IMG/VR virus record: IMGVR_UViG_3300027804_000053
Reading direction: 5' to 3' (one strand)
Origin: a virus
Lineage: Duplodnaviria; Heunggongvirae; Uroviricota; Caudoviricetes
Length of the DNA stretch: 64,000 bases
Both the position numbers and the translations under genes were made by a program. This document shows, in pieces, positions 8,632-37,636 of the stretch. Each line of letters starts with the position of its first letter. The first letter of the stretch is position 1. Below the pieces are notes generated by a model. That model was not told where the DNA came from. It saw only the letters and a program-made list of their open reading frames with translations, and searched no databases.

Positions 8632-8674
8632 TTATTTTTGTTGTTCCATTATATTTATTATTAAATTGTTTTCA

Positions 8675-9997
8675 ATGAAATTCACATCGTTGTTGAAAAA
8701 ACTTATTGTTGAGGCATCGGCTTATGAAATAAAGTTGGTGCAAAACACAAAACCTATTGTTGCTAAAGATGGCAAGAAGAAAAAACCAAAAATGAGTAAA
8801 GAGGTTTTTGACCTACTTGTTCAAGCTGACCCAACAACTCGTCTCAACGATGTAGATTTACAAACCACCGATGAAAAAGAATTAGGTAAAGTGAAAGCTG
8901 GTAAATATGTAGATTGGATTATACAATCTTATTTGAAAGTTCCAACAGAGGTACAATCAGACCATCCTAATTATGAAAAAGAGTTGAAGGTTATGAGGGA
9001 GAGGTTTTTGGAAGACCTCTATAAAGTTACTGACGACCTGAAGAAATTTGATAGATTTAAAGGAAGATTACCATTAGAACAAAGACAAATACAAAATCTC
9101 ACGCCTGAACAGTTATATCATGCGGTTAAGGATTTTGACCTCACAATGGCCACCACGTCCAAAGCAGAAAGAAAATCTACACCGGTTCACCCTGGAGGTA
9201 AACTTATTTTCGACTCACCCAATTTGAGAGTTATTGAGATTAAAGATAAAGGAGCCACAGGTAAGGAAGCTGCTTGTTTCTATGGTGGAAACAATAAGGA
9301 GACTAGATGGTGTACATCCGCACCTGGTCTTAGTCACTTTGATTATTACATTGTTAAGGGACCGTTATACGTTATATTTGACCCTAATGACCCAAATGTA
9401 GCACCAACTACCGGTTTACCTGTTGAGAGATATCAGTTGAACTTTGAGACTGATTCTTACATGGACAGACACGACTCTAGAATTGATATCATTGAAAAAC
9501 TTAATGGACCTTGGAAAGAATTGAAACCATTATTCAAATCCAAATTTGCTAAAGGTCTTACTGAAGCTGGAGGAACAACACTCAGAATTAACGGATTCAG
9601 TAGTGGTAATGTTGGAAAATTTGTTGCCCTTTATGGTCTTGAAGAACTTATCAATTCACAACCTGATACTTTAGAAGAGTTACAAATCAGAAATAACGAG
9701 AAAAATGGAATGACTATCGAAATTCCAAGTTCAATAAAAAGATTCAAAAATCTTCAATTGATTTTATTTGATAATTGTATTGAAACTATACCTGATGCCA
9801 TTTGTGAATTGGATAATTTAAATTTCCTTTCATTGATGAACAACCCTAAATTGAAAACTGTTCCTGAGTGTATTGCGGATATGCCGAATTTGATGTTCCT
9901 TAATACGAAAGGAAGTGAAAACCTTGTAATTCCTGAAAAAATTAGGAACAGGGCTAAATCGAAATTGGGTAATTATATGTTAGATTTCCAACCTTAA
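8675..9997 (+). CDS. protein with conserved C-x-YGG-x-WCTS domain and C-terminal leucine-rich repeats
   Basis: ATG at 8675. Central ACFYGGNNKETRWCTSAPG motif is shared with ORF 26270. C-terminus has LRR-like LxxLxxLxLxxN units (LQLILFDNCIETIPDAICELDNLNFLSLMNNPKLKTVP). Confidence 0.5.
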   Translation: MKFTSLLKKLIVEASAYEIKLVQNTKPIVAKDGKKKKPKMSKEVFDLLVQADPTTRLNDVDLQTTDEKELGKVKAGKYVDWIIQSYLKVPTEVQSDHPNYEKELKVMRERFLEDLYKVTDDLKKFDRFKGRLPLEQRQIQNLTPEQLYHAVKDFDLTMATTSKAERKSTPVHPGGKLIFDSPNLRVIEIKDKGATGKEAACFYGGNNKETRWCTSAPGLSHFDYYIVKGPLYVIFDPNDPNVAPTTGLPVERYQLNFETDSYMDRHDSRIDIIEKLNGPWKELKPLFKSKFAKGLTEAGGTTLRINGFSSGNVGKFVALYGLEELINSQPDTLEELQIRNNEKNGMTIEIPSSIKRFKNLQLILFDNCIETIPDAICELDNLNFLSLMNNPKLKTVPECIADMPNLMFLNTKGSENLVIPEKIRNRAKSKLGNYMLDFQP

Positions 9998-11948: not shown

Positions 11949-12284
11949 ATGAAAAAACCTGAGTACATACAAAAAATTGAAGGCGAAAGAAGAACTTTTT
12001 CATCGTATGTTCTAAAAGATATGAAAATAACTTTTCCTAAGAACTTACAAGAAAAAAAATATTTTCCTGTCTATTCCGAAAGGATTCATGAACAAGACGG
12101 TAAAACAGTGCTTTCACGTTATATACTCAAATCTGCTCAAGGATTTTATCTATGTTTTGATAAATCCACAGAAAACAATTCATATCAAATTACTATTTAT
12201 TTTGAGGAGTCACAGGACTCGGAATTACAATTTTTCATTAAAAATTTTCTTAAAACATTCAAAAATGATACAACTGACAACTGA
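11949..12284 (+). CDS. hypothetical protein
   Basis: ATG immediately after the preceding stop (TGAATG). Confidence 0.4.
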   Translation: MKKPEYIQKIEGERRTFSSYVLKDMKITFPKNLQEKKYFPVYSERIHEQDGKTVLSRYILKSAQGFYLCFDKSTENNSYQITIYFEESQDSELQFFIKNFLKTFKNDTTDN

Positions 12285-12588
12285 AGAACTAAAACAAAAA
12301 ATTAACAATGGTGAAAACTTCGTTTTGGATTTATATGCAACATGGTGTGGTCCTTGTAAAATAATGTTGAGAAACTTGGAACAAGTTAATGAATCCTTGA
12401 TAAAAGAATCAACAAACCAACCAAAATACAAAATTTACAAGTACGATATCGACACTGACAAAGAGTTCGTAGTATCCGAACTCGGAATCAGAAGTGTTCC
12501 AACTATAAAAATCTTCAAAGAGGGAAAAGAAGTTTTTTCAAGACCTGGCGTAATGATGCCAACTGAACTTCTCACTCTATTAAACTAA
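12265..12588 (+). CDS. trxA: thioredoxin
   Basis: Active site WCGPCK within a thioredoxin-fold-length ORF. ATG at 12265 chosen inside ORF 12088..12588. Confidence 0.75.
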   Translation: MIQLTTEELKQKINNGENFVLDLYATWCGPCKIMLRNLEQVNESLIKESTNQPKYKIYKYDIDTDKEFVVSELGIRSVPTIKIFKEGKEVFSRPGVMMPTELLTLLN

Positions 12589-12593
12589 TTTCT

Positions 12594-12878
12594 ATGAAAA
12601 AAGTTAATGTCATTGTCTATACCATGAAAGGATGTCCTTTTTGTCAGGACTTCAAAAAGTTGTTGGAAGATGAAAAAATCGATTTCGTTGATAGGGACAT
12701 TCACGAGCATGAACAAGAATACGATACATACTCCAAAATTACTGGTAATGATATGATACCCGCACTTCTTATAATTGAAGGGGATGAAAAAAATCATAAG
12801 TCTTATCTCTACGCGCCAGAAAGAAACTATAATGAGTTGACCGAGGCTTTGGAATTAGTTAAAAAACACTTAATTTAA
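12594..12878 (+). CDS. glutaredoxin-like protein (NrdH/Grx-like, CPFC active site)
   Basis: VIVYTMKGCPFCQDFKKLL is the N-terminal glutaredoxin motif. 94 aa. Confidence 0.6.
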   Translation: MKKVNVIVYTMKGCPFCQDFKKLLEDEKIDFVDRDIHEHEQEYDTYSKITGNDMIPALLIIEGDEKNHKSYLYAPERNYNELTEALELVKKHLI

Positions 12879-13570: not shown

Positions 13571-13675
13571 TTCGTTATATTTATTAATTGAGATTTTTTA
13601 TGTCTCGGAATTATATTCAAAAATAATGACAAGATAAATCCAATTTAAAATATTTATTCAAGTATACAGAAATAG

Positions 13676-16600
13676 ATGGGTGAAAACATTTTTATAAGAC
13701 CGAGTAATAGTATTTCAAGAACAGTTGATAGAATACCTTTTATTGATTTTATTAACGAGGCTTCTGATGCACCACTTAGAATGAGGATTTATGATTACAC
13801 CGTTGGAGGTGGACCTGCAATTTGGGGTCAGGTTATAAATTTTTCTGCTAGTACTTCACCGAACATTTTAACTCTGAATGCTTATTTAGGAACACTTACT
13901 GCAACTTCAATAAACGTAATAAATAATCTTACTGTTGGTTCAACTCAAGTAATCAACGACACCGCAAATTGGATTGGTTCTCAAGCTGGTATTGCGGGAG
14001 CGCAGGGACCAAAAGGAAATCAAGGTACACAAGGAACCCAAGGGGCTCAGGGTAATACGGGGGCTCAAGGTTCCATTGGTACAAACGGTGCACAGGGTGG
14101 ACAAGGTGCCCAAGGTAGTATAGGACCTCAAGGTGCCCAAGGTACTCAAGGGGCTCAGGGTAATACAGGTGCTCAGGGGAATGTTGGACCTCAAGGGGCT
14201 CAAGGTGTTAAAGGGCCTTTTGGAGATACAGGTGCACAAGGACCAGTGGGACCACAAGGTGCACAAGGACCAATTGGTGCTCAAGGAAATACAGGTGCAC
14301 AGGGACACACTGGTGCACAAGGTGCTGTTGGACCTGTTGGTTCACAAGGAAGTACGGGTGCACAGGGAAATGTTGGTCCACAAGGTGCCACAGGTCCGAC
14401 TGGAGCACAAGGAAACACAGGTGCCCAAGGAAACACAGGTGCCCAAGGTGCCACTGGCCCAACAGGAGCCCAAGGAAACACAGGCGCCCAAGGGCATACT
14501 GGAGCACAAGGTGCCACAGGTCCGACAGGAGCTCAAGGAAACACAGGTGCTCAAGGACTCACAGGGGCACAAGGTGCCACAGGTCCACAAGGTGCTCAAG
14601 GCCCAACGGGTGCACAAGGTAACACCGGAGCACAGGGAGCTGCAGGCCCGACAGGAGCTCAAGGAGATACAGGTGCACAGGGTGCTGTTGGTCCACAAGG
14701 GGCCACTGGAGATACTGGTGCGCAAGGAGCCACAGGGGCTCAAGGTAATTTGGGACCACAAGGTGCTCAAGGTATTCAAGGTATTCAGGGAAAAGTTGGT
14801 GCTCAAGGAGCGGTTGGCCCACAAGGAGCGACAGGACCGACAGGTCCACAAGGGGCACAAGGTGGGACAGGACATCCTGGTGCACAAGGCGCTTTAGGAC
14901 CAACAGGTCCACAGGGAGCTCAAGGCGCGACAGGACACCCTGGTGCACAAGGAGCAATAGGACCAACAGGTCCACAAGGGGCACAAGGTGGGACAGGACA
15001 TCCTGGTGCACAAGGCTCCGTAGGTCCTGTAGGTTCACAGGGAAGTACAGGTGCTCAGGGTCTTGCTGGACCATTCGGAAATCAAGGAGCAACCGGTTCA
15101 CAGGGTGCAACAGGAAGTGTTGGGGCGGTAGGTCCACAGGGGGCAACAGGAAACGAAGGTGCACAAGGTGCAACTGGTGCTCAAGGAACCATTGGACCAC
15201 AAGGAAACACTGGACCCACAGGTGTACAAGGAGCTCAGGGAGCAACTGGACATCCTGGCGCTCAAGGAGCACTCGGACCAACAGGAGGACAAGGTGCTCA
15301 GGGAGGAACGGGTCATCCAGGTGCACAAGGAGCAACAGGTCCAGCCGGACCTCAAGGTAGTACAGGTGCTCAAGGGGCTTTAGGACCACAAGGGGCAACT
15401 GGACCAACAGGTCCAGCAGGTGCTACTGGTAATGTAGGTGCCGTAGGACCACAAGGGGCCACAGGAACAGCAGGTGCTCAAGGGTCAACAGGTGCCCAAG
15501 GTGCGTTTGGACCGACAGGAAACATTGGACCTACGGGTCCACAAGGAGCTCAAGGAGCAACTGGACATCCTGGCGCTCAAGGAGCTCTCGGACCAACAGG
15601 TGGACAAGGTGCTCAAGGTGCCACGGGTCATCCTGGTGCACAAGGTGCATTAGGACCCGCAGGACCTACAGGATTTCAAGGAGCAACGGGACACCCGGGA
15701 GCTCAAGGTGCCACAGGTCCAACCGGACCAACTGGTCCGCAAGGTGCCACCGGTCATTCTGGAGCTCAAGGTGCTAAAGGGTCTATTGGCCCTCAAGGTG
15801 CTGGAGGTGCAACCGGAGCTCTTGGTCCAACAGGAAACACAGGTCCAACAGGACCAACAGGTCCACAAGGTGCAACTGGACCTATCGGTGCCACAGGTAA
15901 TGTAGGTCCAACAGGTCCTACAGGACCACAAGGTGCAACTGGACCTATCGGTGCGGGAGGAGCGACAGGACCACAAGGTCCTACAGGACCACAAGGTGCT
16001 GCTGGAACCAAAGGAGCAACGGGTGCAACAGGTCCACAAGGTCCTACAGGACCACAAGGTGCCGCAGGTGCAACGGGTGCTACAGGTGCAACTGGTCCCA
16101 CTGGACCAACTGGACCAACAGGAGGTCAAGGTGCTCAAGGGGCAACAGGAACAAAAGGACCAATAGGTCCTGTAGGTGCCACAGGGGCTCCAGGTTCTAA
16201 CGGTCCCCTTGGACCACAGGGGGGACAAGGTGCACAAGGTCCTACAGGACCTCAGGGTCCCGCTGGAGGAACTGGTCCTACTGGTCCAACAGGTAGTCAA
16301 GGTGCTCAAGGAGCTACTGGTGTGACTGGTCCTACAGGACCACAAGGTCCAACGGGGGCTACAGGTTCACAAGGTGCTCAGGGTGCAACGGGACCAGGAA
16401 GTGTAACATGTTATGCCTATTATCCAATTTTGAGAGGAGGAAGGGGTGCGAGTTGTACTTCAGTATGTATACAAACTTTTACTGTAGGTCCAATCTACAC
16501 ACAAAGTGGGACATATTCACCATCAGACAACAAATATTTCAATTATACCAACTGTACGAATTCAAGCTGTGATTTCGGTAACCTTTATCAATACGAAAAA

Positions 16601-17005
16601 ACCGCTGCTAATCAGTGTTATACTCTGAATGCAACATGTGGTAACGGAACCTTCAATCAAACCTGTGCGTATTCGGACGTAAATTTAAAACAAAGTATAG
16701 AGACCTTAGAGGGGGTAATGGATAAAATTATAGAAATCGAGACTGTTGAGTATGATTGGAATGAAAATATAGGTAAAGAAAAATATGACATATTTGAAAA
16801 AAATAAAAAACTTCACCAAATAGGTCTTATTGCACAGAACGTAAGGTTACATTTCCCACAAGTGGTTAAAATGGGACCTGACGGGTATTATTTTATAGAT
16901 TATACAAAATTAAATGCCGTGATAGTTGAAGGAATTAAAGAACATCAATTATTTATAGAAGATATTAATAATAAACTTGATGAATTAGAAAAAAGTATTA
17001 GCTGA
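13676..17005 (+). CDS. collagen-like fibre protein 1 with Cys-rich distal domain and C-terminal intramolecular chaperone (peptidase S74-like) domain
   Basis: 1109 aa. N-terminal ~103-aa domain. ~266 uninterrupted Gly-X-Y triplets ([10 protein letters not shown]...). A ~98-aa Cys-rich segment follows. C-terminus [11 protein letters not shown]...IGLIAQN...[10 protein letters not shown] matches the phage endosialidase/T5-fibre autoproteolytic chaperone domain. Confidence 0.85.
13988..16396. repeat. Gly-X-Y triplet-repeat (collagenous) coding region of fibre 1
   Basis: 9-nt periodicity GGN-NNN-CAA/ACN visible in sequence. Produces spurious ORFs in other frames and on the opposite strand. Confidence 0.8.
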
Positions 17006-20000
17006 TGCCGAACGAACTAAAGATATTTCCTCAGGGTAATGCTTACGATAGTAGACCTTGGTTTTATTGGGATGATGGAAGCAATCAAGTTGCTTTTTTT
17101 GTAACGGCAAGAACTTTAAATTTTTCTGCGGGAACATTCACGCAAGGATTAATGATTGGTCCTCAAGGTATAAGAACTTCAGGATTAACTATAAATAATT
17201 CAGGATTATATGTGGGTCCAACTCAAATGATTAATGTTTCGGGAGTTTGGACTGGACCTACAGCAGGTATTGCGGGAGCTCAAGGTGCTCAAGGAGCACA
17301 AGGTGCTACAGGTAAACAAGGTGCTCAAGGTACTCAAGGAGCAAACACAGGTGCTCAGGGTGATACAGGAGCTCAAGGTGCGACGGGTGCTAAGGGAACA
17401 GCCAGTGCGGTTTCAGGTCCTACTGGTGCCACAGGTGCTCAAGGTGCCCAAGGAACTCAGGGAGCTCAAGGAGGAACACAAGGAGCTCAAGGAGCCGTTG
17501 GAAATCAAGGAGCACAGGGGGCTCAAGGGGACCAAGGTGCAACAGTTGGAGCACAAGGTAAACAAGGAGCTCAAGGAGCTCAAGGTGCTCAGGGAGCTCA
17601 AGGAGCTAAACAAGGTGCTCAAGGTGCAACAGGAAATACAGGTGCTCAGGGTTCTCAAGGTGCTCAAGGCGCAACCACAGGTGCCCAAGGTAACACAGGA
17701 GCTCAGGGTGCTCAGGGCTCTCAAGGAGCACAAGGTGCGAACACCGGTGCACAAGGTAATACAGGTGCTCAAGGTGCTCAAGGCTCTCAGGGGGCACAAG
17801 GAGCAAACACAGGAGCTCAAGGAAATACAGGTGCTCAAGGTGCTCAAGGAAACATAGGTGCTCAAGGTAGTCCTGTTGGGGCGCAAGGAAATACAGGTGC
17901 TCAAGGAAAGCAGGGTGCTCAGGGAGCTCAAGGTACTCCGACAGGTGCACAAGGTGCAACAGGAAAGCAGGGTGCCCAAGGTTCACAAGGTGCTCAAAGT
18001 GGGGTTCAGGGTTCACAAGGTGCCCAAGGTGCTCAAGGAGCCGTCGGGAGTCAAGGTGCGCAAGGTGGAACTACAGGTGCTCAAGGAGACCTTGGAGTTT
18101 CTGGTGCTCAAGGTTCACAAGGTGCTCAAGGTGGAACAACGGGAGCGCAAGGTGCTACAGGACCCACAGGTGCTCAAGGTGCTCAAGGTACTCAAGGTGC
18201 AAATACAGGTGCACAAGGAGCTACAGGACCTACAGGTGCTCAGGGTGCTCAAGGTACTCAGGGAGCAAATCAAGGAGCTCAAGGACCTACAGGACCTACA
18301 GGTGCTCAAGGTGCTCAAGGTACTCAGGGTGCAAACGCGGGTGCACAAGGTGCGACAGGTAATACGGGTGCTCAAGGTTCGCAAGGGGCTAAAGGTGGAG
18401 TTCAAGGACCAACAGGTGCTCAAGGACCAACAGGAGCTCAAGGAAATACAGGAGCTCAGGGTGCGACAACAGGTGCTCAAGGGAGTACTGGAGCTCAAGG
18501 TGCCCAAGGGTTTCAAGGAGCAGCTAGCGCAACTCAAGGGTCTCAGGGTGCGACAGGACCTACAGGTGCTCAAGGAGCTCAAGGTACACAAGGTGCTAAC
18601 ACTGGAGCACAAGGAGCCACAGGACCCACAGGTGCTCAGGGAGCTCAAGGAACCCAAGGAGCTAATACAGGTGCTCAGGGTGCGACAGGAAAAACAGGTG
18701 CACAAGGCTCTCAGGGAGCACAAGGAGGAAATACAGGTGCACAAGGAGCCACGGGTCCACAGGGAGCTCAAGGTAACACAGGAGCTCAAGGGGGTACAAC
18801 AGGTGCTCAAGGTGCAACAGGAAAAACAGGAGCTCAAGGAGCTCAGGGTTCAGCAAGTTCAACACAAGGTGCTCAGGGAGCAACTGGAAATACGGGAGCT
18901 CAAGGAGCACAGGGTTCGCAGGGTGCGAACCAAGGTGCTCAAGGTGCGACAGGACCAACAGGGCCAACAGGTGCTCAAGGTTCTCAGGGTGCAAACACAG
19001 GAGCTCAAGGTGCCATAGGTGTTCAGGGTAATCAGGGAGCTCAGGGTTCTCAAGGTGCGAACCAAGGTGCTCAGGGTGCGACAGGACCAACAGGGCCAAC
19101 AGGGGCTCAAGGTTCTCAGGGTGCAAACACAGGAGCTCAAGGAGCAACAGGACCCACAGGAGCTCAAGGTGCCCAAGGTTCTCAGGGAGCAAACCAAGGA
19201 GCGCAAGGTGCTCCAGGACCCACAGGAAATACAGGAGCACAAGGGTCAGGACCTGGTCCTCAAGGAGCACAAGGAGCCACAGGGCCAACAGGAAATACAG
19301 GTGCGCAAGGGTCAGGACCTGGTCCTCAAGGAGCACAAGGAGCCACAGGGCCAACAGGAAATACAGGGGCGCAAGGCTCAGGACCCGGTCCTCAAGGTGC
19401 ACAAGGAGCTACGGGTCCAGGTGGAGCCACAGGAGCACAAGGCGCGGGACCCGGTCCACAAGGTGCTCAAGGTGCTCCAGGTGGTACGGGACCACAAGGA
19501 CCTACTGGAGCTCAGGGCTCACAAGGGTCAGGACCTGGTCCAACAGGACCCCAAGGCGCTCAGGGTGCTCAAGGTGCCGCAAGTGGAACCGCGGGTGCTC
19601 CGGGACCAGTAGGACCCTCGGGTCAACCCGGAGCGACTGGATTAGCAGGTGCAACAGGACCAACTGGCCCACAAGGACCTACGGGAGCTCAAGGTGCTCA
19701 AGGTGCTGGAGGTTCAACAGGTCCTACAGGTCCACAGGGACCAACAGGTGGTCAGGGAGCACAAGGTGCTCAAGGTCCATCTTCTGACATCCGATTGAAG
19801 GATAATATTATTCCGCTGAGAGAACCTGAGAAAAAAATTAAAACAATTGAAAGTGTATCATTTGAGTGGGATACAGAACACAGGAAAATCAAAGAACACC
19901 CAGCAATTGTTTTCAAAGAAGCTTTCACAGGTACTACTTTCGGTTTCATTGCTCAAGATGTGGAGAAGATTATACCTGAGGTAGTAGATACAGATGATGA

Positions 20001-20124
20001 GGGTTATAAAAGTATGCACTACGGACCTCTTGTTAGTTTGGGACTTGCAAATCTCAAAATAAATCAAAAACGTATTGACTCTATTTATGAGAGGATAAAT
20101 AAGTTGACTGAAACATTAACATAA
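17005..20124 (+). CDS. collagen-like fibre protein 2 with C-terminal intramolecular chaperone (S74-like) domain
   Basis: 1039 aa. Start overlaps the upstream stop (TGATG). N-terminal domain is paralogous to fibre 1 (…[25 protein letters not shown]). ~840-residue collagenous region carries regular single-residue register breaks ([24 protein letters not shown]). C-terminus [10 protein letters not shown]...FGFIAQD. Confidence 0.85.
17263..19779. repeat. Gly-X-Y triplet-repeat coding region of fibre 2 (with periodic one-residue interruptions and GSGPGPQG sub-repeats near the 3' end)
   Basis: Seen directly in the translated frame and in nucleotide periodicity. Confidence 0.8.
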
Positions 20125-20125
20125 G

Positions 20126-23100
20126 ATGGCTTGTAAGATATATAAAGTAGTTGGTGGTACAGGAGGTGGTTCATGGAGTGGAGAACTCTGTGCATCTTTA
20201 ACCGCAGTAAGTAGTAATGTTAATCAAGGGGTTTCACTTTATACTCCTTGTATAAAAGACACTGCAACATTTACTAATGTAACCACAACTTCTGTAGATT
20301 GCGATAATAATGGGACTGCTGAAAACATTATTGTTGCTCCTTCACTATCTTTAATGCAACTTGTAAGTAGTGCAGATACATTTGTGAACTGGGTATTGGA
20401 AGGTGGGGTTCTGAAATTTGTACCATATAATAATGCTGCAGGTACTGCTTATTTAAGTATTCACACATCTGGAAATATATTAAGGTCAGATTTTCCAATT
20501 TACTTGGAAAATTCATTAAGTAATAATGCTCTAAGCCCATTAATTAATTCTACAGGTTGGTTAGGAAACAAACTCGCTCAGGGTTCACAAGGTGCACAAG
20601 GTGCTCAAGGAGACCAAGGTGCCCAGGGAAATATTGGAGGACAAGGTGCGCAAGGAGGCCAAGGGTCACAAGGAGCTCAAGGTTCTCAAGGAGCGGTAGG
20701 TGCTCAAGGAGTACAAGGAGCACAGGGAGCACAAGGCGCGGTTGGGGGACAAGGCTCTCAAGGAGGAACGGGTGCCCAAGGAGCTCAAGGTTCTCAGGGA
20801 ATAACCGGTCTACAAGGTGCACAGGGTGGACAAGGTGCGCAAGGAGTGCAAGGTGCACAGGGAGCTCAAGGAGATATTGGTCAACCTGGAAGTCAGGGAG
20901 CACAAGGAGCCCAAGGTGGTCAAGGAGCCCAAGGAGGACAAGGTGCACAGGGTGGTCAAGGTGCACAGGGTGGTCAAGGTGCTCAGGGTCTTACGGGGGG
21001 TCAAGGTTCTCAAGGAGGACAAGGTGCTCAAGGAGGGCAAGGTTCTCAGGGTTCTACAGGTGGACAAGGTTCACAAGGTGGTCAGGGTTCACAGGGACCT
21101 GTAGGTGCTCAAGGTTCTCAAGGAGGACAGGGTGCACAGGGTGGTCAAGGTGCTCAAGGAGGACAAGGGGCTCAAGGGGTACAAGGAGCTCAGGGTTCTC
21201 AAGGAGGACAAGGTGCCCAAGGAGCCCAAGGTGGTCAAGGTGCTCAAGGTGGTCAAGGTGCTCAAGGTGCAAAAGGAGTACAGGGTTCTCAAGGTGCTCA
21301 GGGTGCCGTAGGGGGACAAGGTGCCCAAGGTGGACAAGGAACACAGGGTGCTCAAGGTGGACAAGGTGCTCAAGGACCTCAAGGTGCTCAAGGGGGGACA
21401 GGTGCACAGGGTGCTCAAGGTCCTCAGGGTTTAACTGGTGCTCAGGGTCCAGCTGGTGTACAGGGTGCTCAGGGTACACAAGGACCGCAAGGTACACAAG
21501 GTGCTCAAGGGCCTACTGGTGGACAGGGAGCCCAAGGTGGTCAAGGTCCTCAAGGTCCCACAGGGGCACAAGGTCCAACCGGTGTACAAGGAGCCCAAGG
21601 AGCCCAAGGTGGTCAAGGTGCTCAAGGAGGGCAAGGAGCCCAAGGCGGACAAGGTGGACAGGGTGCACAAGGAGGACAGGGAGCCCAAGGTGGTCAAGGT
21701 GCTCAAGGAGGACAAGGAGCCCAAGGTGGTCAAGGTGCTCAGGGTTCTTTTGGAGCTAAAGGAGCTCTCGGTGCTCAGGGAGCCCAAGGTGCTCAAGGAC
21801 CTCAAGGTTCAACAGGAGCTCAAGGACCGGGCGGTGTACAAGGAGCCCAAGGTGCTCAAGGACCTCAAGGTTCAACAGGAGCTCAAGGACCGGGTGGTGT
21901 TCAAGGTGCTCAAGGTGCTCAAGGTGGTCAAGGTTCACAAGGTGGACAAGGAGCTCAAGGAGGTCAAGGTACTCAAGGTTCACAGGGTGGACAGGGAGCC
22001 CAAGGTGGTCAAGGGGCTCAAGGTGGACAAGGAACCCAAGGAGCTCAAGGTGGACAAGGAGCCCAAGGTGGTGGTGGTGCCGCTGGAGGTCAAGGAGCAC
22101 AAGGTGCTCAAGGACCTGTAGGTTCAACAGGAGCTCAAGGTCCAACAGGAGGACAAGGAGCACAAGGTGCTCAAGGGCCTCAAGGTTCAACAGGTGCGCA
22201 GGGACCTGGTGGAGGTCAAGGTGCCCAAGGTCAAAAAGGACCCCTTGGACCTACAGGTGCACAAGGACCAGCTGGAGGTCAAGGTGCCCAAGGAGCTCAG
22301 GGTCCACAAGGTGGACAAGGTTCACAAGGACCAACTGGAGGACAAGGCGCCCAAGGATTAATAGGTGGAACAGGTGGTCAAGGTGCCCAAGGACCAGCTG
22401 GAGGTCAAGGTGCCCAAGGAGCTCAGGGTCCACAAGGTGGTCAAGGTTCGCAGGGACCGGCTGGAGGACAGGGAGCACAAGGAGCTCAAGGTCCTCAAGG
22501 TGGTCAAGGAGCTCAAGGACCTGCGGGTGGTCAAGGAGCTCAAGGAGCTCAAGGCCCTCAAGGTGGTCAAGGAGCTCAAGGACCAGCGGGTGGTCAAGGA
22601 GCACAAGGGTCACAAGGCCCAGGTGGAGCTCAAGGTGCACAAGGACCAGCTGGTGGACAAGGTGCTCAAGGAGCTCAAGGGGGAGGAGGTGGAACAGGTG
22701 GTCAGGGAGCTCAAGGTGCAGTTGGACCGGCTGGAGCAACAGGTATTACAGGTGCGCAAGGAGCTCAAGGACCAGCGGGTGGTCAAGGAGCTCAAGGACC
22801 TACAGGAGCTACAGGAGCTCAAGGTTCACAAGGTGCAAAAGGTCCACTTGGACCTACAGGTTCACCAGGAGGAACGGGAGCTCAAGGTGCGCAAGGTCCA
22901 AAAGGACCTACAGGACCACAAGGTCCGGCAGGTGGGACGGGACCTCAGGGTGCTCAGGGTGCTCAAGGTGCAACAGGACCTTCGGATTATAGAGTAAAGA
23001 AAAACATTAAATCGATTGAAAATGTTTTACCAAAAGTTCTTAAACTTAGAGGTGTATCTTTCGAGTGGAAAAATATTGATACCAAATCTCACGGACCTCA

Positions 23101-23302
23101 AGTAAGTGACATTGGATTTATCGCTCAAGAAATTCAACAAATATTCCCTGAACTTGTATTCAAAAAGAATCAGAAAGATTCTCATTATATGGTAAAATAC
23201 TCTGAAGTTATTGCTTTATGTCTTCAAGCTATAAAAGAACAGTCTTTATTATTAGATGAAAAAGAGGAGAGACTTGAAAAACTTGAAATGAAAGTTAAGT
23301 AA
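20126..23302 (+). CDS. collagen-like fibre protein 3 with C-terminal intramolecular chaperone (S74-like) domain
   Basis: 1058 aa. ~150-aa N-terminal globular domain. Extremely regular (G-[AGS]-Q)n tract of ~800 residues. C-terminus [12 protein letters not shown]...IGFIAQE...HYMVKYSEV. Confidence 0.85.
20579..22981. repeat. Gly-X-Y triplet-repeat coding region of fibre 3
   Basis: GGN-GCN/GGN-CAA nonamer periodicity throughout. Confidence 0.8.
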
Positions 23303-23307
23303 AAAAA

Positions 23308-23332
23308 AAAGGGTTTTTTTAAACCCTTTTTA
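23308..23332. terminator. bidirectional intrinsic terminator (A-run, AAAGGGTTT/AAACCCTTT hairpin, T-run)
   Basis: aaaaaaaaaagggtttttttaaaccctttttat lies between the convergent fibre-3 gene and the minus-strand gene at 23319. Confidence 0.6.
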
Positions 23333-26269: not shown

Positions 26270-28012
26270 GTGAAATTTTTTCAAATTTTAAAAGAGTCGA
26301 GAGTTGATGAGTTTGCTTTCAAATATGCTAACAAGTTTACCGGTGAACAGCTTAAAAGAATGATTGATTTGATTAAACCAAAATTTTTAGATTGGTCAGG
26401 ACGAGTTTTGGACGGAATTTCCTTTGAAAAAGAAATTTTACAACTCAATGAATATTTAAATATTTTCGAGAACATTTCATCAAATTTACCTCAAACAGAC
26501 ATTAATCGTTATAAGTCATTGGATGAGTTAATCCAAGAGATTAAAAAGTATCGAGACAAGCTGAAAAGAAATTATACAGAGACTGAGGGTGGAAATTTAG
26601 TTTTCCAAGATGATAGATTTTACATTGTAAATCCACTTAATCATAAATCATCTTGTTATTATGGTGCTGGAACTAAATGGTGTACCAGCACAACTGATAG
26701 TGATGCAAACTTCAACAAATACAATAGTGATGGAAAACTTTTTTATTTTATTGATAAAAAGTTAAAAACAGATGACCCTTTCTATAAAGTTGCCCTCCTT
26801 TATAAATTTGATAAAGAGAAATCTTGGTGGGACGCTCGAGACAACTCTTTCTCTAAGGGATGGATACTTGGTTCCGAAGAACTTGATAAAATTTTGGGAC
26901 AAATTGAAGAATACCTCAGAAATCAATATCCCGAACAAATTCAAAAGTTTGAGGATGAAAAAAGAAAAAAAGAAGAGAAGGAAAGACAGAGACGATTGGA
27001 AATCCAAAGAATTCAAAGACAAAGGTACGAGGACGCCGAAGAAAGAAGAGCGGAGGGAGAATGGGATTTAGGACCCGATTGTCCTGAGGAAGGGTTGAAA
27101 GCTCATGCACTTCTCGATTGGTTGGTTGATACAAGTGATATTAAAGTCTTAACCAATGCAGACAGAATTGAAATTCAGAGAATTAATGATGAAATTGAAA
27201 GGTTGAACACAGAATACGACACATCTGATGAAGTAAGAACAGACCTTTTAGACACAATAAGTGATTTAGAAGATGAAAGAGATGAGTTAGTTTCAAAAAT
27301 TGATGTTTATAATATTGTACCAACAGGAGAACATTACGAAATGACTGAATTTGAAGTTACAGAAAGTGCGGATTTGGAAGGAAGAAGATATGCTGTTGGA
27401 ACTTTAGATGAAACTAGAGAGAGCGCTGAAGATGCTTTGAGACAACAAATAGATGATATGGGTGTGGATGCATTCAATCATGGGTTTGCGAAAGGTCATT
27501 TGGACAAGGATAAAATTGAGGACACCGCTAGAGATTATTTTTATCAAGACATTTGGGATAATCCAGATGCGTTCTTAGATGATTCACAAAGGGAACTATC
27601 AAAAAAACAAGATGATAATATAAGTTTATTAGAAAGAAAAATAAAACAAGCTGAAGACTCAATTGAAAGTTTGGAAGAATTAGAGGGCACTGAGGAAAAA
27701 ATAGAGGAATTACAAGATATGATTGTGGATTGGGAGGACGAAATTCAAGAAATAAAAGATGACCCTCAAGGAGATTTTCCAAGTGAACTGATTGAAGAAA
27801 GAATAGATGAGATGGTGGAAGACGCGGTAAGTGACCCTGAATATTTTTTGAGTAACTATGGTTTAGATTGGGCGGATTTTATAGACGTTGAATCATTAAT
27901 TGAGGAAGCGATTGATGTGGATGGTGAAGCTCATTTTATTAATTCTTATGACGGAAATTCTGATGAAGTTACAGTACAAGACCAAACCTTTGTGGTTATG
28001 AGAATTGATTAA
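26270..28012 (+). CDS. protein with conserved C-x-YG-x-G-x-WCTS domain and acidic coiled-coil C-terminal half
   Basis: 580 aa. SSCYYGAGTKWCTSTTD motif is paralogous to ORF 8675. GTG start per the track. First in-frame ATG is at 26360. Confidence 0.5.
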   Translation: MKFFQILKESRVDEFAFKYANKFTGEQLKRMIDLIKPKFLDWSGRVLDGISFEKEILQLNEYLNIFENISSNLPQTDINRYKSLDELIQEIKKYRDKLKRNYTETEGGNLVFQDDRFYIVNPLNHKSSCYYGAGTKWCTSTTDSDANFNKYNSDGKLFYFIDKKLKTDDPFYKVALLYKFDKEKSWWDARDNSFSKGWILGSEELDKILGQIEEYLRNQYPEQIQKFEDEKRKKEEKERQRRLEIQRIQRQRYEDAEERRAEGEWDLGPDCPEEGLKAHALLDWLVDTSDIKVLTNADRIEIQRINDEIERLNTEYDTSDEVRTDLLDTISDLEDERDELVSKIDVYNIVPTGEHYEMTEFEVTESADLEGRRYAVGTLDETRESAEDALRQQIDDMGVDAFNHGFAKGHLDKDKIEDTARDYFYQDIWDNPDAFLDDSQRELSKKQDDNISLLERKIKQAEDSIESLEELEGTEEKIEELQDMIVDWEDEIQEIKDDPQGDFPSELIEERIDEMVEDAVSDPEYFLSNYGLDWADFIDVESLIEEAIDVDGEAHFINSYDGNSDEVTVQDQTFVVMRID

Positions 28013-35489: not shown

Positions 35490-35562
35490 CGCATGGTAGT
35501 AGCAGCGGTAGCTCGCCAGGCTCATAACCTGGAGGTCGTCAGTTCGATTCTGACCCATGCAA
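35490..35562 (+). tRNA. tRNA-Met (anticodon CAU), initiator-like
   Basis: Hand-folded cloverleaf. Acceptor CGCATGG/CCATGCA with C1xA72 mismatch. Anticodon stem CCAGG/CCTGG with loop CTCATAA. Variable loop AGGTC. T arm GTCAG-TTCGATT-CTGAC. Discriminator A. The D arm is non-canonical (3 bp AGC/GCT, loop AGCGGTA). CCA is not encoded. Confidence 0.55.
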
Positions 35563-35569
35563 CGAAAAA

Positions 35570-36580
35570 AAAAGTTTTATAAAAATTTGACGAATTGAAA
35601 AGTTCTTCTTAATTTTGTAAGACAGTTGAAGGAAAAGGGTTGTAAAGTTCCTTACCGAAGTCGGGGGTTGTAAAAAATTTCCACTCTCCTTCAATACTTG
35701 ATAGTTCTTTGTTTTAAGATATTGGCCGCCTATGGTCATTAAATAAACTACGAAAGTAGTATAAAGTGGGACACCAGGTTTTAGTGTTCTGCGGTATCAA
35801 AGGGGTACTCGAGTAGGCAATCAGGATATGTTCTGACCTTTAGTACTGAGGGTAACACTGTAGGGAAAGTGGTTGGAATACGGGGCGATACGGGTCGTCT
35901 CGTTGAGGTCGGAAGACTAATAAGAATAACCTGAGGAATCTATGTGAGAAATTATGGCTTCCACCATAGTCATCACGTAATTCAATATGAAAGTTGACTT
36001 AAAACCGAAAGGTAAGTTGATGTACAGGTGGTGCTGTTATTAACCTTGAAACGTCTCTACCAAGAGCGTATCACTGAAGTTGACTTGAAGTATGGAGGTC
36101 GGGAGACTTCAGAGAGTAGTTTAGTATCGTGTCGTTCAAAAGGCGACACGGCTGGTGACAGACCGCTACTTTCCACATCCGTAAACCAACCCTTAATTGT
36201 TAATTCTGGTTTAACAACTTATAATTAAAATCAAGGAAAAGTGTCTGTCAGTCGTTGGAAACAGGTGACTACATAGTCTTGAGATGTTCATGACCGTGTT
36301 GGGTCCCAAGCCCTTCACGATTTTCACGAAAGTTCTCTATTCCCGCAAGGAAGAATTGGGGTGGCAACCTCGAAGAGTGATGAGTAAGGAGAGAGTATTC
36401 AACGATTTAAGGATTGGTTAATCTAATTGACCGTCACTGAGAGTTACTGTTCAAAAGACAGTGGAAACGGAGGGAATAAATAATCCTTCTAAAGATTCTC
36501 AACAAAGCTTGTATTCTCAGAGTTTTTTGCCTGACCCTGACCGTCTCTACGGTTGGGGTTTTTTGTTTTTTGAAGTATTT
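35570..36580 (+). ncRNA. candidate large structured non-coding RNA (~1 kb) immediately downstream of the tRNA
   Basis: No credible ORF. The only one listed (36028..36228) has no start context. G+C visibly higher than the flanks. Many local hairpins (e.g. CGTGTCG-ttcaaaag-CGACACG, GACTAcaTAGTC). Ends in ACCGT-ctct-ACGGT-TGGGG-T6-G-T6, a terminator-like element, at ~36540-36580. Confidence 0.4.
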
Positions 36581-36595
36581 ATAAGAAAAAATACG

Positions 36596-37636
36596 ATGTA
36601 CATAAAAAAACTTTCGCCTCAGGAGGCTTTAGAAACAATCAAATTGAGAATGAATTATGATTCATCAAAAACTTTGAACGAAAATAAGTTGATAGTCCTC
36701 GAACAAAAAGCCAATCTCACAACAAACCAACAAGCAGCATTAACTCAAGGTTTTGGTCCTGTGACAGCCAAAGCAGCTGACGATTTAGCTAAACAGGGAA
36801 AGTTGAAAACAAACACATTAAAATCTGTTTTTGGGGGCACTCAAACTCCTACCTCCGCGGTTGATACAAGTACCGCTAACAAACAAACCTCTGACACAGG
36901 AGTTGGAAAAGCTATACAACAAGGTGTTCAAGCGGCAAACCTCAAAATAGATGTATCTTGTATTGGATTCAACGGTGAAGAATATAAAGAAATCACAACA
37001 GCTTTAGTAAGCTCTGACGGCATTGGAAAACCGGTTCACGTTTGGAGATTTTGGCCTGACGGAAAAGCAATATATGTCGAAAGTGGGGATAAGTACAAGT
37101 ATACATACAAATGTAGTAAAACTAAACCTGGTGTTGTTGAAATAACAGATGTTGATTCTTCAGAAGTGGATGAATACAAATTATTTGATAAGAAAAATTC
37201 ACAAACAGTTGCCCCTAAAAAAGCTGTTCCAATTCCATCAGAATTGAAAGACATCGAGGGTGTAAAAAAATTCCAAGATTGGTTAGATAAAAACCATGAG
37301 GGTTGGCATGACAAATACAAAGTTCTGAATGGTAGCGTCCCTAAAGGTTATGGTAAATTTGGTCCGAGAACAAATAAATGGTGGAAACTTCAAAGGGTAA
37401 ATTATCTTAATTCATCTCCTACTACAAATACAACAACTTCATCAAAAGTAGATACAACACAATCTCAATCTTCCACGAAAATTGATACAACTCCACCTAA
37501 AGCTCAAATCCCAAGCGCATCTAAAGGTTTCCAAAAGTTCGCACAATCACAATTTGGTGCAAACTCTCAACCTTCTAATTCTGAAACCACAACAAAACCA
37601 ACTACAAGGGTTGCAAGTGCAGACACCGAATTCTAA
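36596..37636 (+). CDS. Thr/Ser/Gln-rich hypothetical protein
   Basis: ATG at 36596 (MYIKKLSPQEA...). The track's GTG at 36461 lies inside the structured region. Low-complexity T/S-rich C-terminal third. Confidence 0.45.
   Translation: MYIKKLSPQEALETIKLRMNYDSSKTLNENKLIVLEQKANLTTNQQAALTQGFGPVTAKAADDLAKQGKLKTNTLKSVFGGTQTPTSAVDTSTANKQTSDTGVGKAIQQGVQAANLKIDVSCIGFNGEEYKEITTALVSSDGIGKPVHVWRFWPDGKAIYVESGDKYKYTYKCSKTKPGVVEITDVDSSEVDEYKLFDKKNSQTVAPKKAVPIPSELKDIEGVKKFQDWLDKNHEGWHDKYKVLNGSVPKGYGKFGPRTNKWWKLQRVNYLNSSPTTNTTTSSKVDTTQSQSSTKIDTTPPKAQIPSASKGFQKFAQSQFGANSQPSNSETTTKPTTRVASADTEF

Follow-up and report, generated by a model that had tools for sequence, protein, structure and literature searches.

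Three adjacent, co-oriented ORFs on the plus strand of the window (the whole stretch of 64,000 nt analysed here, IMG/VR record IMGVR_UViG_3300027804_000053) encode large collagen-like proteins of 1109, 1039 and 1058 amino acids, termed A, B and C in the following. The start of gene B overlaps the stop codon of gene A by 1 nt (TGATG) and a gap of 1 nt separates B from C (TAAgATG), in agreement with the first-pass annotation, which had described overlapping or abutting start and stop codons for the three consecutive genes. The following features were assigned:

13588..13617, plus strand: promoter-like site TTGAGA-18-TATATT 5' of gene A, 10/12 positions matching
13676..17005, plus strand: gene A, 1109 aa, with N-terminal domain, 268 unbroken Gly-X-Y triplets, Cys-rich knob and type A S74 domain
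13676..13987, plus strand: N-terminal domain of A (aa 1-104), ending in the conserved motif (V/I)IN-x-T-x-x-W-x-G
13988..16399, plus strand: collagen domain of A (aa 105-908), 268 triplets, 1.2% charged residues, DNA period 63 nt (7 triplets)
16400..16672, plus strand: knob of A (aa 909-999), 91 aa with 8 Cys, between collagen and S74 domain
16673..17002, plus strand: S74 domain of A (aa 1000-1109), Ser1000/Lys1005 dyad, IGLIAQ motif, C-terminal helix
17005..20124, plus strand: gene B, 1039 aa, with N-terminal domain, 265 triplets in 36 blocks and type B S74 domain
17266..19782, plus strand: collagen domain of B (aa 88-926), 265 triplets, 36 blocks, period 22 aa (DNA 66 nt)
19783..20121, plus strand: S74 domain of B (aa 927-1039), Ser927/Lys932 dyad, FGFIAQ motif, C-terminal helix
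20126..23302, plus strand: gene C, 1058 aa, with N-terminal domain, 267 unbroken triplets and type C S74 domain
20582..22984, plus strand: collagen domain of C (aa 153-953), 267 triplets, Gln at 202/267 Y positions, 42% Gly
22982..23299, plus strand: S74 domain of C (aa 953-1058), Ser953 as putative nucleophile in G-P-S-D-Y-R-V-K
23306..23331, no strand: hairpin with an 11-bp stem and A and T runs on both sides, between the convergent gene C and a 284-aa gene

Promoter-like sites are no more frequent in this region than expected from shuffling, and the site at 13588..13617 is a weak candidate for the promoter of gene A. The hairpin, judged from its sequence, is probably a bidirectional terminator. 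Tight packing of the genes, the promoter-like site upstream and the hairpin downstream would be consistent with one transcription unit.

The source is an uncultured freshwater jumbo bacteriophage. Genes of phage type in the context encode a sigma-70-type factor, an Amidase_2 lysin, a T4 endoV-like protein, Dam and UmuC, related IMG/VR phage contigs reach up to 321 kb, and one neighbouring gene is similar to that of a structural protein of the jumbo phage PA5oct; the bacteriophage gene context proposed earlier is thereby confirmed, and a giant virus context was not found. The overlapping or abutting codons of adjacent genes likewise speak against a nucleocytoplasmic large DNA virus of the Mimiviridae. 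The trio is surrounded by genes without known function and no tail module is recognisable there. Genes for a GT2 glycosyltransferase and a UDP-galactopyranose mutase are located at 44-48 kb of the window.

Architecture of the encoded proteins

All three proteins matched the Pfam Collagen profile PF01391 (E-values of 3e-109, 1e-69 and 9e-55 among the three), which was the search recommended in the first-pass annotation. The collagen tracts have an unusual composition; they contain only about 1% charged residues and 5-11% Pro, carry Gln at most Y positions and are free of KGE and KGD triplets. Gly-X-Y tracts of about 800 residues had been reported for each chain; this holds for A and C, which are unbroken, but not for B, whose tract is divided by 35 short interruptions. 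Most of these consist of one additional residue (T, Q or P) per seven triplets and create the 22-aa period, which is reflected in a DNA tandem period of 66 nt in B vs. 63 nt in A and C. The B-type chains of all relatives show the same pattern of seven triplets plus one residue, with 20-49 interruptions. For 268 triplets a rod of ~230 nm is predicted (268 x 3 x 0.286 nm), the length estimated before, and it would represent one of the longest unbroken, nearly charge-free Gly-X-Y helices we are aware of.

The assignment of S74-like domains to the C-termini was upheld as well. The scores of A, B and C against Peptidase_S74 (PF13884) were 36.3, 45.1 and 59.2 bits, compared to a curated gathering cutoff of 22 bits. 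Characteristic of the domain is an S-x4-K dyad at its N-terminal edge, e.g., S911/K916 in endoNF and S587/K592 in MyRF (PMC8326128). The pattern S-D-x-x-x-K is invariant in the three proteins described here, in 30 orthologues and in 42 A-type homologues, and in an alignment of 30 chains from the first ten trios this pattern, IG(F/L/V)IAQ and PE(V/L)V are kept with only conservative substitutions. In C, Ser953 doubles as the Y residue of the last collagen triplet. An AF2 model of the C-terminus of A (pLDDT about 83 in the S74 part) contains a 33-residue terminal helix (residues 174-206 of 207) and retrieved 7DC3 (probability 1.0) and 3GUD (0.82) with Foldseek, so that the modelled fold matches the ICA domain of MyRF as well as the chaperone domain of K1F. 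With phmmer, the C domain matched 6F45 (long tail fibre tip) and 7DC3 (MyRF ICA). The S74 matches fall in distal subunits of long tail fibres, and the three domains are ~30% identical to one another.

A C-terminal module of about 106-114 aa, as annotated initially, is present in B and C, where the collagen tract directly abuts S-D-x-x-x-K; in A, the corresponding region comprises 201 aa including the 91-aa Cys-rich knob. The knob, the periodic interruptions of B and the conservation of the trio in other phages (16 loci) had been overlooked in the earlier reading. The knob is hypervariable between phages (22% identity) and occurs on only one chain per trio; one locus (L272) is devoid of any knob. 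Presumably it represents the distal receptor-binding tip which remains after cleavage.

The non-collagenous N-termini comprise 104 aa in A, 87 aa in B and 152 aa in C, the latter compared to about 86-92 aa in relatives. A profile of these domains retrieved only 26 relatives from 1.84 billion representative proteins. The N-terminal domain of A is presumed to be the virion-attachment end. Searched on their own against Pfam and PHROG, the N-terminal domains and the knob gave no family match; the PHROG tail-fibre matches of the trio are due to the collagen repeats and the S74 domain, and no tail-fibre homology was found outside these parts.

Taken together, A, B and C are very probably collagen-like fibre chains with a C-terminal S74 domain that trimerises, nucleates folding in C-to-N direction and then cleaves itself off at the Ser-Lys dyad. 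We infer a role as virion fibres. All parts of the earlier interpretation accessible to checking proved correct.

Length and composition of the trio in related phages

Conservation of the trio extends over 16 distinct related loci. Ordered by S74 type A/B/C, the triplet counts are 268/265/267 in the phage of the window and, e.g., 266/269/265, 211/210/212, 195/195/193, 221/219/219, 303/299/304 and 97/95/96 in others. The number thus varies about three-fold between phages, from 96 to 304, whereas A and C of the same locus differ by at most three triplets in 14/16 loci. Correlations between chain lengths are r = 0.98-0.99, and the median spread within a locus is four triplets, a value which never fell below 35.5 in 200,000 permutations. 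Two loci are outliers, L017 with 126/152/144 and L280 with at least 309/324/270 triplets. B differs from A and C by 2.8 triplets on average but is 9-36 residues longer. Since the S74 domains of different phages (ten loci compared) are only 49-67% identical and near neighbours have unequal numbers of triplets (150 vs. 97; 266 vs. 211 vs. 118), lengths must have shifted repeatedly, and every shift affected all three genes.

Each trio contains exactly one S74 domain of types A, B and C. This also applies to locus L274 (219-221 triplets), in which the domains are permuted: the N-terminal domain of A is combined with the S74 domain of B, that of C with the knob and the S74 domain of A, and that of B with the S74 domain of C. 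Among the loci compared, none carried just one or two of the genes. In three relatives (L013, L015, L016) the flanking synteny is identical and all three genes are absent; the cassette is therefore accessory.

One heterotrimeric helix or three homotrimeric fibres

The match of lengths within a phage, combined with their three-fold variation between phages, suggests that A, B and C each contribute one chain to a single heterotrimeric triple helix. Rods 80-260 nm long with mismatches of 1-3 triplets (1-3 nm) are matched far more tightly than independent flexible fibres would need, and this would fit a shared helix. This co-variation, not noticed earlier, may point past three paralogous fibres to a single heterotrimer. 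In favour of it are also the agreement of B with A and C in triplets rather than in residues, the presence of one S74 domain of each type, the all-or-none occurrence of the genes and the single knob; the overlapping or abutting stop and start codons would fit an equimolar, coupled translation. We assign a probability of about 50% to this reading. At the same even odds, the product would be the first natural heterotrimeric A-B-C collagen outside animals, with chains and register set by co-evolved, self-excising S74 domains and an almost uncharged fibre of 80-260 nm that ends in one monomeric Cys-rich knob; we know of no heterotrimeric collagen from other sources.

According to this model the three diverged S74 domains would associate via their C-terminal coiled coil into an A-B-C heterotrimer with one chain of each kind, set the register and nucleate folding of the collagen helix in C-to-N direction. 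After ~267 triplets have zipped up, self-cleavage before Ser1000 (A), Ser927 (B) and Ser953 (C) would release all three domains, which in this respect would act like procollagen C-propeptides or the globular heads of C1q, but remove themselves. The mature product would be a ~230 nm fibre with a single Cys-rich distal knob, contributed by chain A alone, and a proximal pseudo-trimeric cap formed by the three related N-terminal domains. The additional residue per seven triplets in B may create regular bulges or hinges along the rod.

As the collagen tracts contain ~1% charged residues and neither KGE nor KGD, chain choice and register must come from the terminal domains. In the crystal structure solved for MyRF's ICA domain the C-terminal helices form a parallel triple coiled coil which drives trimerisation, and Arg695 (heptad g) bridges to Glu700 (e) on the neighbouring helix (PMC8326128). 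We transferred these two positions to the phage domains by HMMER alignment. C-type domains carry K/R at g and E at e (10/10), B-type domains R at g (22/25) and K or T at e (23/25), and A-type domains Q or E at g (81/88) and E at e (86/88). Considering this one heptad layer, B3 would be self-repulsive in 13 and A3 in eight of the 16 loci; complementary charges fit only the cyclic order A>B>C>A, which yields attractive pairs in 16/16, weakly so in the divergent clade L276/L281. C-type domains are electrostatically self-compatible in all loci, and A of the window phage has Lys at g, so that A3 is not disfavoured there. Moreover, triplets with Pro fall at the same places in different chains (lag 0) only if counting begins at the C-terminal end (A-B correlation +0.17, positive in 9/9 phages, z = 4.5). 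The signal derives mainly from the last ~80 triplets and could be residual paralogy. Interruptions of A and C were not enriched near those of B.

Several observations argue against a heterotrimer. Loci L017 and L280 break the length rule, the 20-49 interruptions of B are without counterpart in A or C and each would have to bulge from one chain only, and the charge argument concerns one heptad layer and fades in clade L276/L281. In addition, the S74 domain of A lies ~90 residues past the end of the collagen tract while those of B and C abut it, hence a heterotrimer would need a looped-out knob with its ends close together.

Three separate homotrimeric fibres A3, B3 and C3 on the same virion, equalised in length by a shared geometric constraint, are an alternative that we regard as quite possible. 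Fibres folded back along a matching tail, lateral bundling or a common span through a host capsule or sheath could impose such a constraint; A3 would then carry a trimeric receptor-binding knob, and the rod of B3 would be segmented and more flexible. The CIMCD of endosialidases is homotrimeric and, to our knowledge, so is every S74 or intramolecular-chaperone domain characterised so far. Precedents are the homotrimeric S74/ICA domain of MyRF (PMC8326128) and the prokaryotic collagens (PMC8968730). In homotrimers the interruptions of B would be harmless, being common to all three chains, and a knob just before the S74 domain follows the tip-plus-chaperone plan that is classical for tail fibres. 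The self-complementary charges of the C-type domains in all loci and of A in the window phage agree with this reading, as do the mismatches of 18-54 triplets tolerated in the two outliers. However, a match of 1-3 triplets over a three-fold range, reached through repeated independent length changes, demands an extra assumption without precedent, and B3 and C3, once cleaved, would be left with bare collagen and no domain at the distal end. Homotrimers also leave unexplained the strict one-each occurrence of S74 types even after permutation, the absence of single-gene loss or gain in any locus, and the R(g) opposite K(e) in B-type and mostly E/Q opposite E in A-type domains.

It is improbable that the products are something other than virion fibres, i.e., a hair or decoration of the capsid surface or a coat of the infected cell, with S74 as a folding aid only. 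The cassette is indeed dispensable, as seen from its absence in L013, L015 and L016, its neighbours are genes of unknown function without a tail module, and none of the N-terminal domains matches a known attachment domain. Nevertheless, viral S74 domains have so far been found in virion fibres and spikes (PHROG; PMC12220804), the hypervariable tip is typical of a host-recognition domain and a neighbouring gene resembles that of the PA5oct virion structural protein. Head fibres anchored on the capsid would still be virion fibres, so that this explanation overlaps with the main one.

Mis-assembly of repeats as the origin of the Gly-X-Y tracts or their equal lengths, or ORFs that are not real genes, has a negligible probability: although metagenomic assemblies often break in these genes, many homologues are fragments on 1-3 kb contigs and collapse of repeats could account for the two length outliers, three independent assemblies agree with one mismatch per 10-20 kb, collapse would lead to unequal rather than equal lengths, and all three frames are open over more than 1000 codons with conserved ends in 16 loci. 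ENA contig ERZ27247887, in which all three genes are contained, differs at one of 20,855 nt; JGI contig 3300017747 includes gene C plus 820 nt of B and differs at one of 10,139 nt. The trio is not an assembly artefact because these independent assemblies agree at 99.99%, and the read collapse that the first-pass annotation had named as a possible refutation is unlikely because the internal DNA repeats have diverged (59-86% alike in arrays of at least three copies).

Relation to known systems and significance

With other S74 proteins (K1F tailspike, T5 L-shaped fibre, long-tail-fibre tips, MyRF ICA) the trio shares the Ser-x4-Lys dyad, the Pfam score, the C-terminal site and a heptad helix at the end like the trimerising coiled coil of MyRF, in addition to the match of the A model with 7DC3 and 3GUD. 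It differs in that the domain follows collagen or a small knob instead of a triple beta-helix, in that three diverged types always occur together, one each, and in salt-bridge charges which suggest hetero-association, whereas the characterised members are homotrimers.

Collagen fused to S74 is already known from PHROG tail-fibre families (e.g., phrog_8745, 5668, 11011), from fibres of polinton-like viruses (PMC12220804) and from collagen-like prophage proteins of E. coli. These proteins have the same domain order and the same presumed role as trimeric adhesion fibre, but they are encoded by single genes, typically with short collagen among other repeats. The trio, in contrast, has 96-304 triplets, unbroken in two chains, family-specific N-terminal domains and knob, and three obligate, co-varying paralogues. 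Our literature search found no description of a conserved, length-matched collagen-S74 trio, in line with the first-pass annotation, which had known of no description of three equal-length tandem paralogues with S74-like domains.

As in the heterotrimeric collagens of types I, IV and IX and in C1q, distinct chains of equal length are encoded by separate genes, apart from the two outliers. The three C1q genes are adjacent to each other. C1q likewise consists of three different chains with collagen regions of equal length, a C-terminal heterotrimeric domain which serves as register and a bend where Gly-X-Y breaks (PMC5902488). Its terminal domains are not homologous to those of the trio, its heads are retained and form the binding unit, whereas the phage domains would be removed and only A keeps a small knob, and the predicted phage helix is ~10 times longer; the heterotrimer of the trio is a proposal. 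Procollagen C-propeptides select the chains at the C-terminus, nucleate C-to-N folding and are then removed by proteolysis (PMC5353611, PMC11923368), as proposed here for the S74 domains. They are cut by a separate proteinase, whereas cleavage of the phage S74 domains is putatively autocatalytic (Ser-Lys dyad), and their fold is unrelated; furthermore, the trio is almost uncharged and lacks hydroxyproline machinery.

The BclA exosporium nap of Bacillus and the collagen fibrils of Mimivirus are long surface filaments of Thr-/Gln-rich Gly-X-Y repeats with glycosyltransferase genes nearby. The trio is similar in its Thr-/Gln-rich repeats and in the GT2 and UDP-galactopyranose mutase genes of the window. 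Unlike the trio, BclA retains a C1q/TNF-like C-terminal domain, and the Mimivirus collagens are without S74 and belong to a eukaryotic virus instead of a bacteriophage.

Heterotrimeric collagens of defined composition and stagger are a standing difficulty in production (PMC8968730). As terminal domains alone would fix composition and register in a heterotrimer, the trio could be used as a ready-made kit to make defined heterotrimeric collagens in bacterial hosts. The long, nearly charge-free predicted helix bears on folding without electrostatic clamps (PMC11923368). Even if the fibres are homotrimers, selection holds three genes to the same triplet number (~1%) while this number drifts from 96 to 304, and the length-matched trio illustrates cleanly how a molecular length constraint acts in nature. 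Collagen-like proteins of prokaryotes and viruses have been taken as homotrimers; a phage heterotrimer, if true, would change this picture and would provide an experimentally simple model for chain selection via three self-removing C-terminal domains.

Collagen genes of the cassette and their terminal domains

The trio of collagen-like fibre genes, here designated A, B and C, is composed of the following ORFs:

13676-17005, + strand: gene A, ORF of 1109 aa
17005-20124, + strand: gene B, ORF of 1039 aa
20126-23302, + strand: gene C, ORF of 1058 aa

Gene A ends within the first codon of B, stop and start sharing the sequence TGATG, and a single base lies between B and C. The G+C content of the trio (47-58%, versus about 32% in the rest of the window) is raised because of the codons for Gly, Ala, Pro and Gln. 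The first-pass annotation had described Gly-X-Y tracts in all three chains. Counted as Gly in phase, 268 triplets (aa 105-908) in A and 267 (aa 153-953) in C are indeed unbroken; in B, 265 triplets (aa 88-926) are split into 36 blocks by 35 interruptions, mostly one additional residue (T, Q or P) per seven triplets, and the DNA tandem period is 66 nt versus 63 nt (seven triplets) in A and C. About 1% of the residues in the collagen domains (13988-16399, 17266-19782 and 20582-22984) are charged, KGE or KGD clamp triplets do not occur and Gln fills most of the Y positions (202 of 267 in C). Being nearly charge-free and devoid of these clamps, they differ from the salt-bridge-rich collagens described in PMC11923368. 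Chain C, with its high Gly and Gln content, may be unable to build a stable helix by itself. The collagen genes also contain many additional ORFs of up to 400 aa, out of frame or on the opposite strand (13940-22997; e.g., 20557-21759, +, and 15650-16345, -), which are by-products of the GGN-rich repeats, not genes.

An assembly artefact, which would have undermined the first-pass annotation, was rejected. The 73.6-kb contig of ENA assembly ERZ27247887 covers all three genes with 1 mismatch in 20,855 nt, and JGI assembly 3300017747, from a different sample, spans the end of B and all of gene C, again with 1 mismatch, in 10,139 nt. The internal DNA repeats (arrays of at least three copies) are only 59-86% identical, so that read collapse is unlikely.

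All three chains exceeded the thresholds of both Pfam models that had been proposed for verification, Collagen (E 3e-109 to 9e-55) and Peptidase_S74 (36, 45 and 59 bits; cutoff 22), and every testable feature of membership in the two families is present. The predicted C-terminal S74 module is found in each chain. The description of A had to be amended: a 91-residue domain with 8 Cys, termed knob here, separates its collagen from S74, while in B and C the helix joins the S-D-x-x-x-K motif directly. A, B and C are old paralogues, with about 30% identity to one another in the N-terminal as well as the C-terminal domains.

Within the first ten trios, S-D-x-x-x-K, IG(F/L/V)IAQ and PE(V/L)V are conserved in all 30 aligned chains with conservative substitutions only, and these chains fall cleanly into three orthologous S74 types (A-, B- and C-type). 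A sequence search of the PDB matched 6F45, the tip of a long tail fibre, and 7DC3, the ICA domain of MyRF. The C-terminal 207 residues of A were modelled with AlphaFold2 from an input of 41 metagenomic homologues; the model reached a pLDDT of 78 overall and about 83 in the S74 part, ends in a 33-residue helix and retrieved 7DC3 (probability 1.0) and the K1F chaperone domain 3GUD in Foldseek. MyRF is cleaved between P586 and S587, and S587 and K592 are required (PMC8326128); by analogy, A would be cut before Ser1000, B before Ser927 and C before Ser953, and fragments of about 12 kDa would be released.

Pfam and PHROG searches of the N-terminal domains and the knob gave no match, and the N-terminal-domain profile recovered only 26 of 1.84 billion proteins. 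In ten orthologues the knob comprises 84-95 aa, and its Cys count is always even (6, 8 or 10). Its mean identity is only 22%, versus 57% for the adjoining S74, a variability that would be expected of a host-recognition tip. Modelled alone, the knob is predicted with confidence as a monomer (pLDDT 88, pTM 0.77); it is absent from one lineage, L272.

Conservation of the trio and its helix lengths

IMG/VR and metagenomes were scanned with relatives of the neighbour gene and with alignments of the B- and C-type S74, which yielded 16 distinct loci with a trio.

Table. Gly-X-Y triplets per chain in the 16 trio loci (A/B/C, assigned by S74 type)
Window: 268/265/267
L035: 266/269/265
L029: 211/210/212
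L032: 195/195/193
L031: 174/169/176
L030: 161/155/160
L027: 150/148/147
L267: 152/148/149
L028: 97/95/96
L110: 118/114/117
L272: 166/162/163
L274: 221/219/219
L276: 303/299/304
L281: 301/287/300
L017: 126/152/144 (outlier)
L280: at least 309/324/270 (outlier)

In 14 of the 16 loci the counts of A and C lie within 3 triplets of each other, and the correlations of length between chains amount to 0.98-0.99. Within loci the spread has a median of 4 triplets, and 200,000 permutations never gave a value below 35.5. B resembles A and C more closely in triplets (mean difference 2.8) than in residues (longer by 9-36). Since the S74 domains are 49-67% identical between phages (ten loci compared) and near neighbours are unequal in collagen length, the length has changed on many occasions, always in A, B and C alike.

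Every trio contains exactly one S74 of each type. This applies also to L274 (1539-10348), in which the parts are permuted: the A-type N-terminal domain is combined with a B-like collagen and the B-type S74, the C-type N-terminal domain with the knob and the A-type S74, and the B-type N-terminal domain with the C-type S74. Each N-terminal and S74 type is still present once, on chains of 219-221 triplets. The interrupted chain of this locus carries two non-collagen inserts (about 165 and 67 aa) after its first 4 and 3 triplets.

In three relatives all three collagen genes are absent and the flanking genes, encoding proteins of 231 and 284 aa, are directly adjacent, about 90-115 nt apart:

L013, 10040-10131: cassette-less junction
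L015, 10846-10961: cassette-less junction
L016, 10840-10926: cassette-less junction

Loci with only one or two of the trio genes were not found. Because the cassette-less relatives keep the flanks and partial sets are missing, the cassette is a dispensable, accessory element and is gained or lost as a unit. Other viral lineages (L113, 6470-19420; L119; L321; L304-L325) show different layouts. Some possess tandem genes for collagen and S74 which are much larger, heavily interrupted and unequal (1292, 1942 and at least 1085 aa); in others a single protein of 2600-2900 aa combines about 160 triplets with an extended non-collagen region and S74.

One heterotrimeric fibre or three homotrimeric fibres

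We propose, with a probability of roughly one half, that A, B and C form one heterotrimeric collagen fibre. The three genes match the three chains of a collagen helix, their triplet numbers are held to about 1%, their coding sequences overlap or abut and a distal domain is present on one chain only. Matching to 1-3 nm would be needed by chains that share a helix but not by flexible rods of 80-260 nm that are independent of one another. With about 1% charge and no KGE/KGD clamps, composition and register must come from the terminal domains.

A more direct hint is given by the charges in the C-terminal helices. In MyRF these form a parallel triple coiled coil which drives trimerisation, and Arg695 (heptad position g) forms salt bridges to Glu700 (e), E693 and D697 of the neighbouring helix (PMC8326128). 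In the HMMER alignment 'LETRIDELE' of MyRF maps onto 'EERLEKLE' of chain C. The g/e residues are K/R and E in the C-type (10 of 10), R followed by K or T in the B-type and Q or E followed by E in the A-type. When trimers were scored by the summed charge products at these positions, B3 was repulsive in 13 and A3 in 8 of the 16 loci. The cyclic order A>B>C>A was attractive in all 16, weakly so in the divergent L276/L281 clade, and the opposite order was near neutral in most. By analogy with MyRF, this pattern would favour a mixed trimer. Weak support is also provided by the Pro-containing triplets, which coincide between chains at lag 0 only if counted from the C-terminal end (A-B correlation +0.17, z = 4.5, with a positive value in 9 of 9 phages); most of the signal comes from the last 80 triplets, and it fades beyond about 80.

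Three length-matched homotrimeric fibres (A3, B3 and C3) are an explanation to which we assign somewhat less than an even chance. Anchoring at both ends, or bundling of the fibres, could account for their equal lengths. Every S74 domain and prokaryotic collagen characterised so far is homotrimeric (PMC8326128; PMC8968730), a precedent which speaks against the heterotrimer. So do the outliers L017 and L280, mismatched by 18-54 triplets. The interruptions of B have no partner in A or C, nor are those of A and C aligned with B's, so that a heterotrimer would need single-chain bulges. Interruptions of A and C coincide 8 times versus 2.3 expected under a uniform model, a surplus which may reflect the clustering of both sets near the C-terminus. 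Moreover, the knob of A would have to loop out for its S74 to meet those of B and C. Also against a heterotrimer, the C-type S74 and, in the window itself, the A-type are electrostatically self-compatible, and in the L276/L281 clade the pattern of charges becomes faint.

That gene conversion keeps the lengths equal was rejected, since the tracts differ in composition and DNA period (63 versus 66 nt); identical triplets between chains showed no excess at lag 0, which likewise counters it. At the collagen-S74 junction, B reads G-x-x-S-D and C reads G-x-S-D in 10 of 10 phages of the main clade. A built-in one-residue stagger at this point was dropped as an argument, as it is lost in L272 and A and B share the same phase at the N-terminal junction.

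Genomic setting and significance

Further features of the window are:

8666-9997, + strand: 443-aa leucine-rich-repeat (LRR) protein
12283-12588, + strand: thioredoxin-like protein
12594-12878, + strand: glutaredoxin-like protein
26270-28012, + strand: 580-aa neighbour of the trio
35490-35562: tRNA-Met, the only tRNA gene of the window
36112-36523, + strand: full-length GOLLD RNA (Rfam RF02032)
44460-47943, + strand: cluster of a family-2 glycosyltransferase (GT2), a 383-aa gene and UDP-galactopyranose mutase
61594-62292: further GT2

The source is an uncultured freshwater jumbo phage. Near-identical DNA was not found in cultured or deposited phages, the sole match being a 120-nt collagen stretch of a 735-kb uncultured phage; tblastn gave S74-level similarity only (at most 36% identity), in tail-fibre genes. 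A giant-virus origin was rejected on gene content, which includes DnaJ, two DNA methyltransferases, a Y-family polymerase, glycosyltransferases and UDP-galactopyranose mutase, with a sigma-70-type factor, an Amidase_2 lysin and a T4 endonuclease V-like protein upstream of the window on the same contig. Viral contigs in IMG/VR, the largest of 321 kb, carry homologues of the trio's downstream neighbour. The N-terminus of the 580-aa protein resembles jumbo-phage proteins (PA5oct 'structural protein' and Salicola SCTP-2), and a weakly similar segment is common to this protein and the LRR protein. The conserved gene order comprises the LRR protein, a 541-aa gene, thioredoxin, glutaredoxin, the 231-aa gene, A, B and C, the 284-, 257- and 337-aa genes and the 580-aa gene.

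Across the whole window, Shine-Dalgarno-like motifs are depleted before the genes (2 of 49, 4%, versus 21% background), which hints at a host not relying on Shine-Dalgarno-led initiation. Such depletion is usually associated with Bacteroidota. Among GTDB genomes the sole close match was a 3.2-kb contig binned into a Betaproteobacteria MAG.

The thioredoxin/glutaredoxin pair lies a short distance upstream of the cassette in every relative examined; the cassette-less ones keep it too, as does L113, a distant lineage. The pair may be connected with the knob's even-numbered Cys residues, or may simply be part of nucleotide metabolism. The enzymes of the glycosyltransferase cluster are candidates which could glycosylate the Thr- and Gln-rich fibres. 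The GOLLD RNA scores 324.5 bits (E 4e-92), the gathering score being 150. It follows the tRNA gene at a distance of about 550 nt downstream and overlaps the start of the listed ORF 36461-37636.

The fusion of collagen and S74 is already known from PHROG tail-fibre families and polinton-like virus fibres (PMC12220804). New points, of which the literature searched gave no description, are an obligate set of three genes in which each S74 type occurs once, helix lengths that co-vary strictly across a three-fold range, the seven-triplet-plus-one pattern of chain B and a knob without recognisable structural relative. The closest functional analogues of the proposed mechanism are C1q, a three-chain protein with a kink and with C-terminal heads that are heterotrimeric (PMC5902488), and the procollagen C-propeptide. 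The latter chooses the chains, starts their folding from the C-terminal end and is later removed, a step which in the phage S74 would be autocatalytic. There is a substantial chance, at about even odds, that the trio represents the first natural heterotrimeric collagen outside animals.
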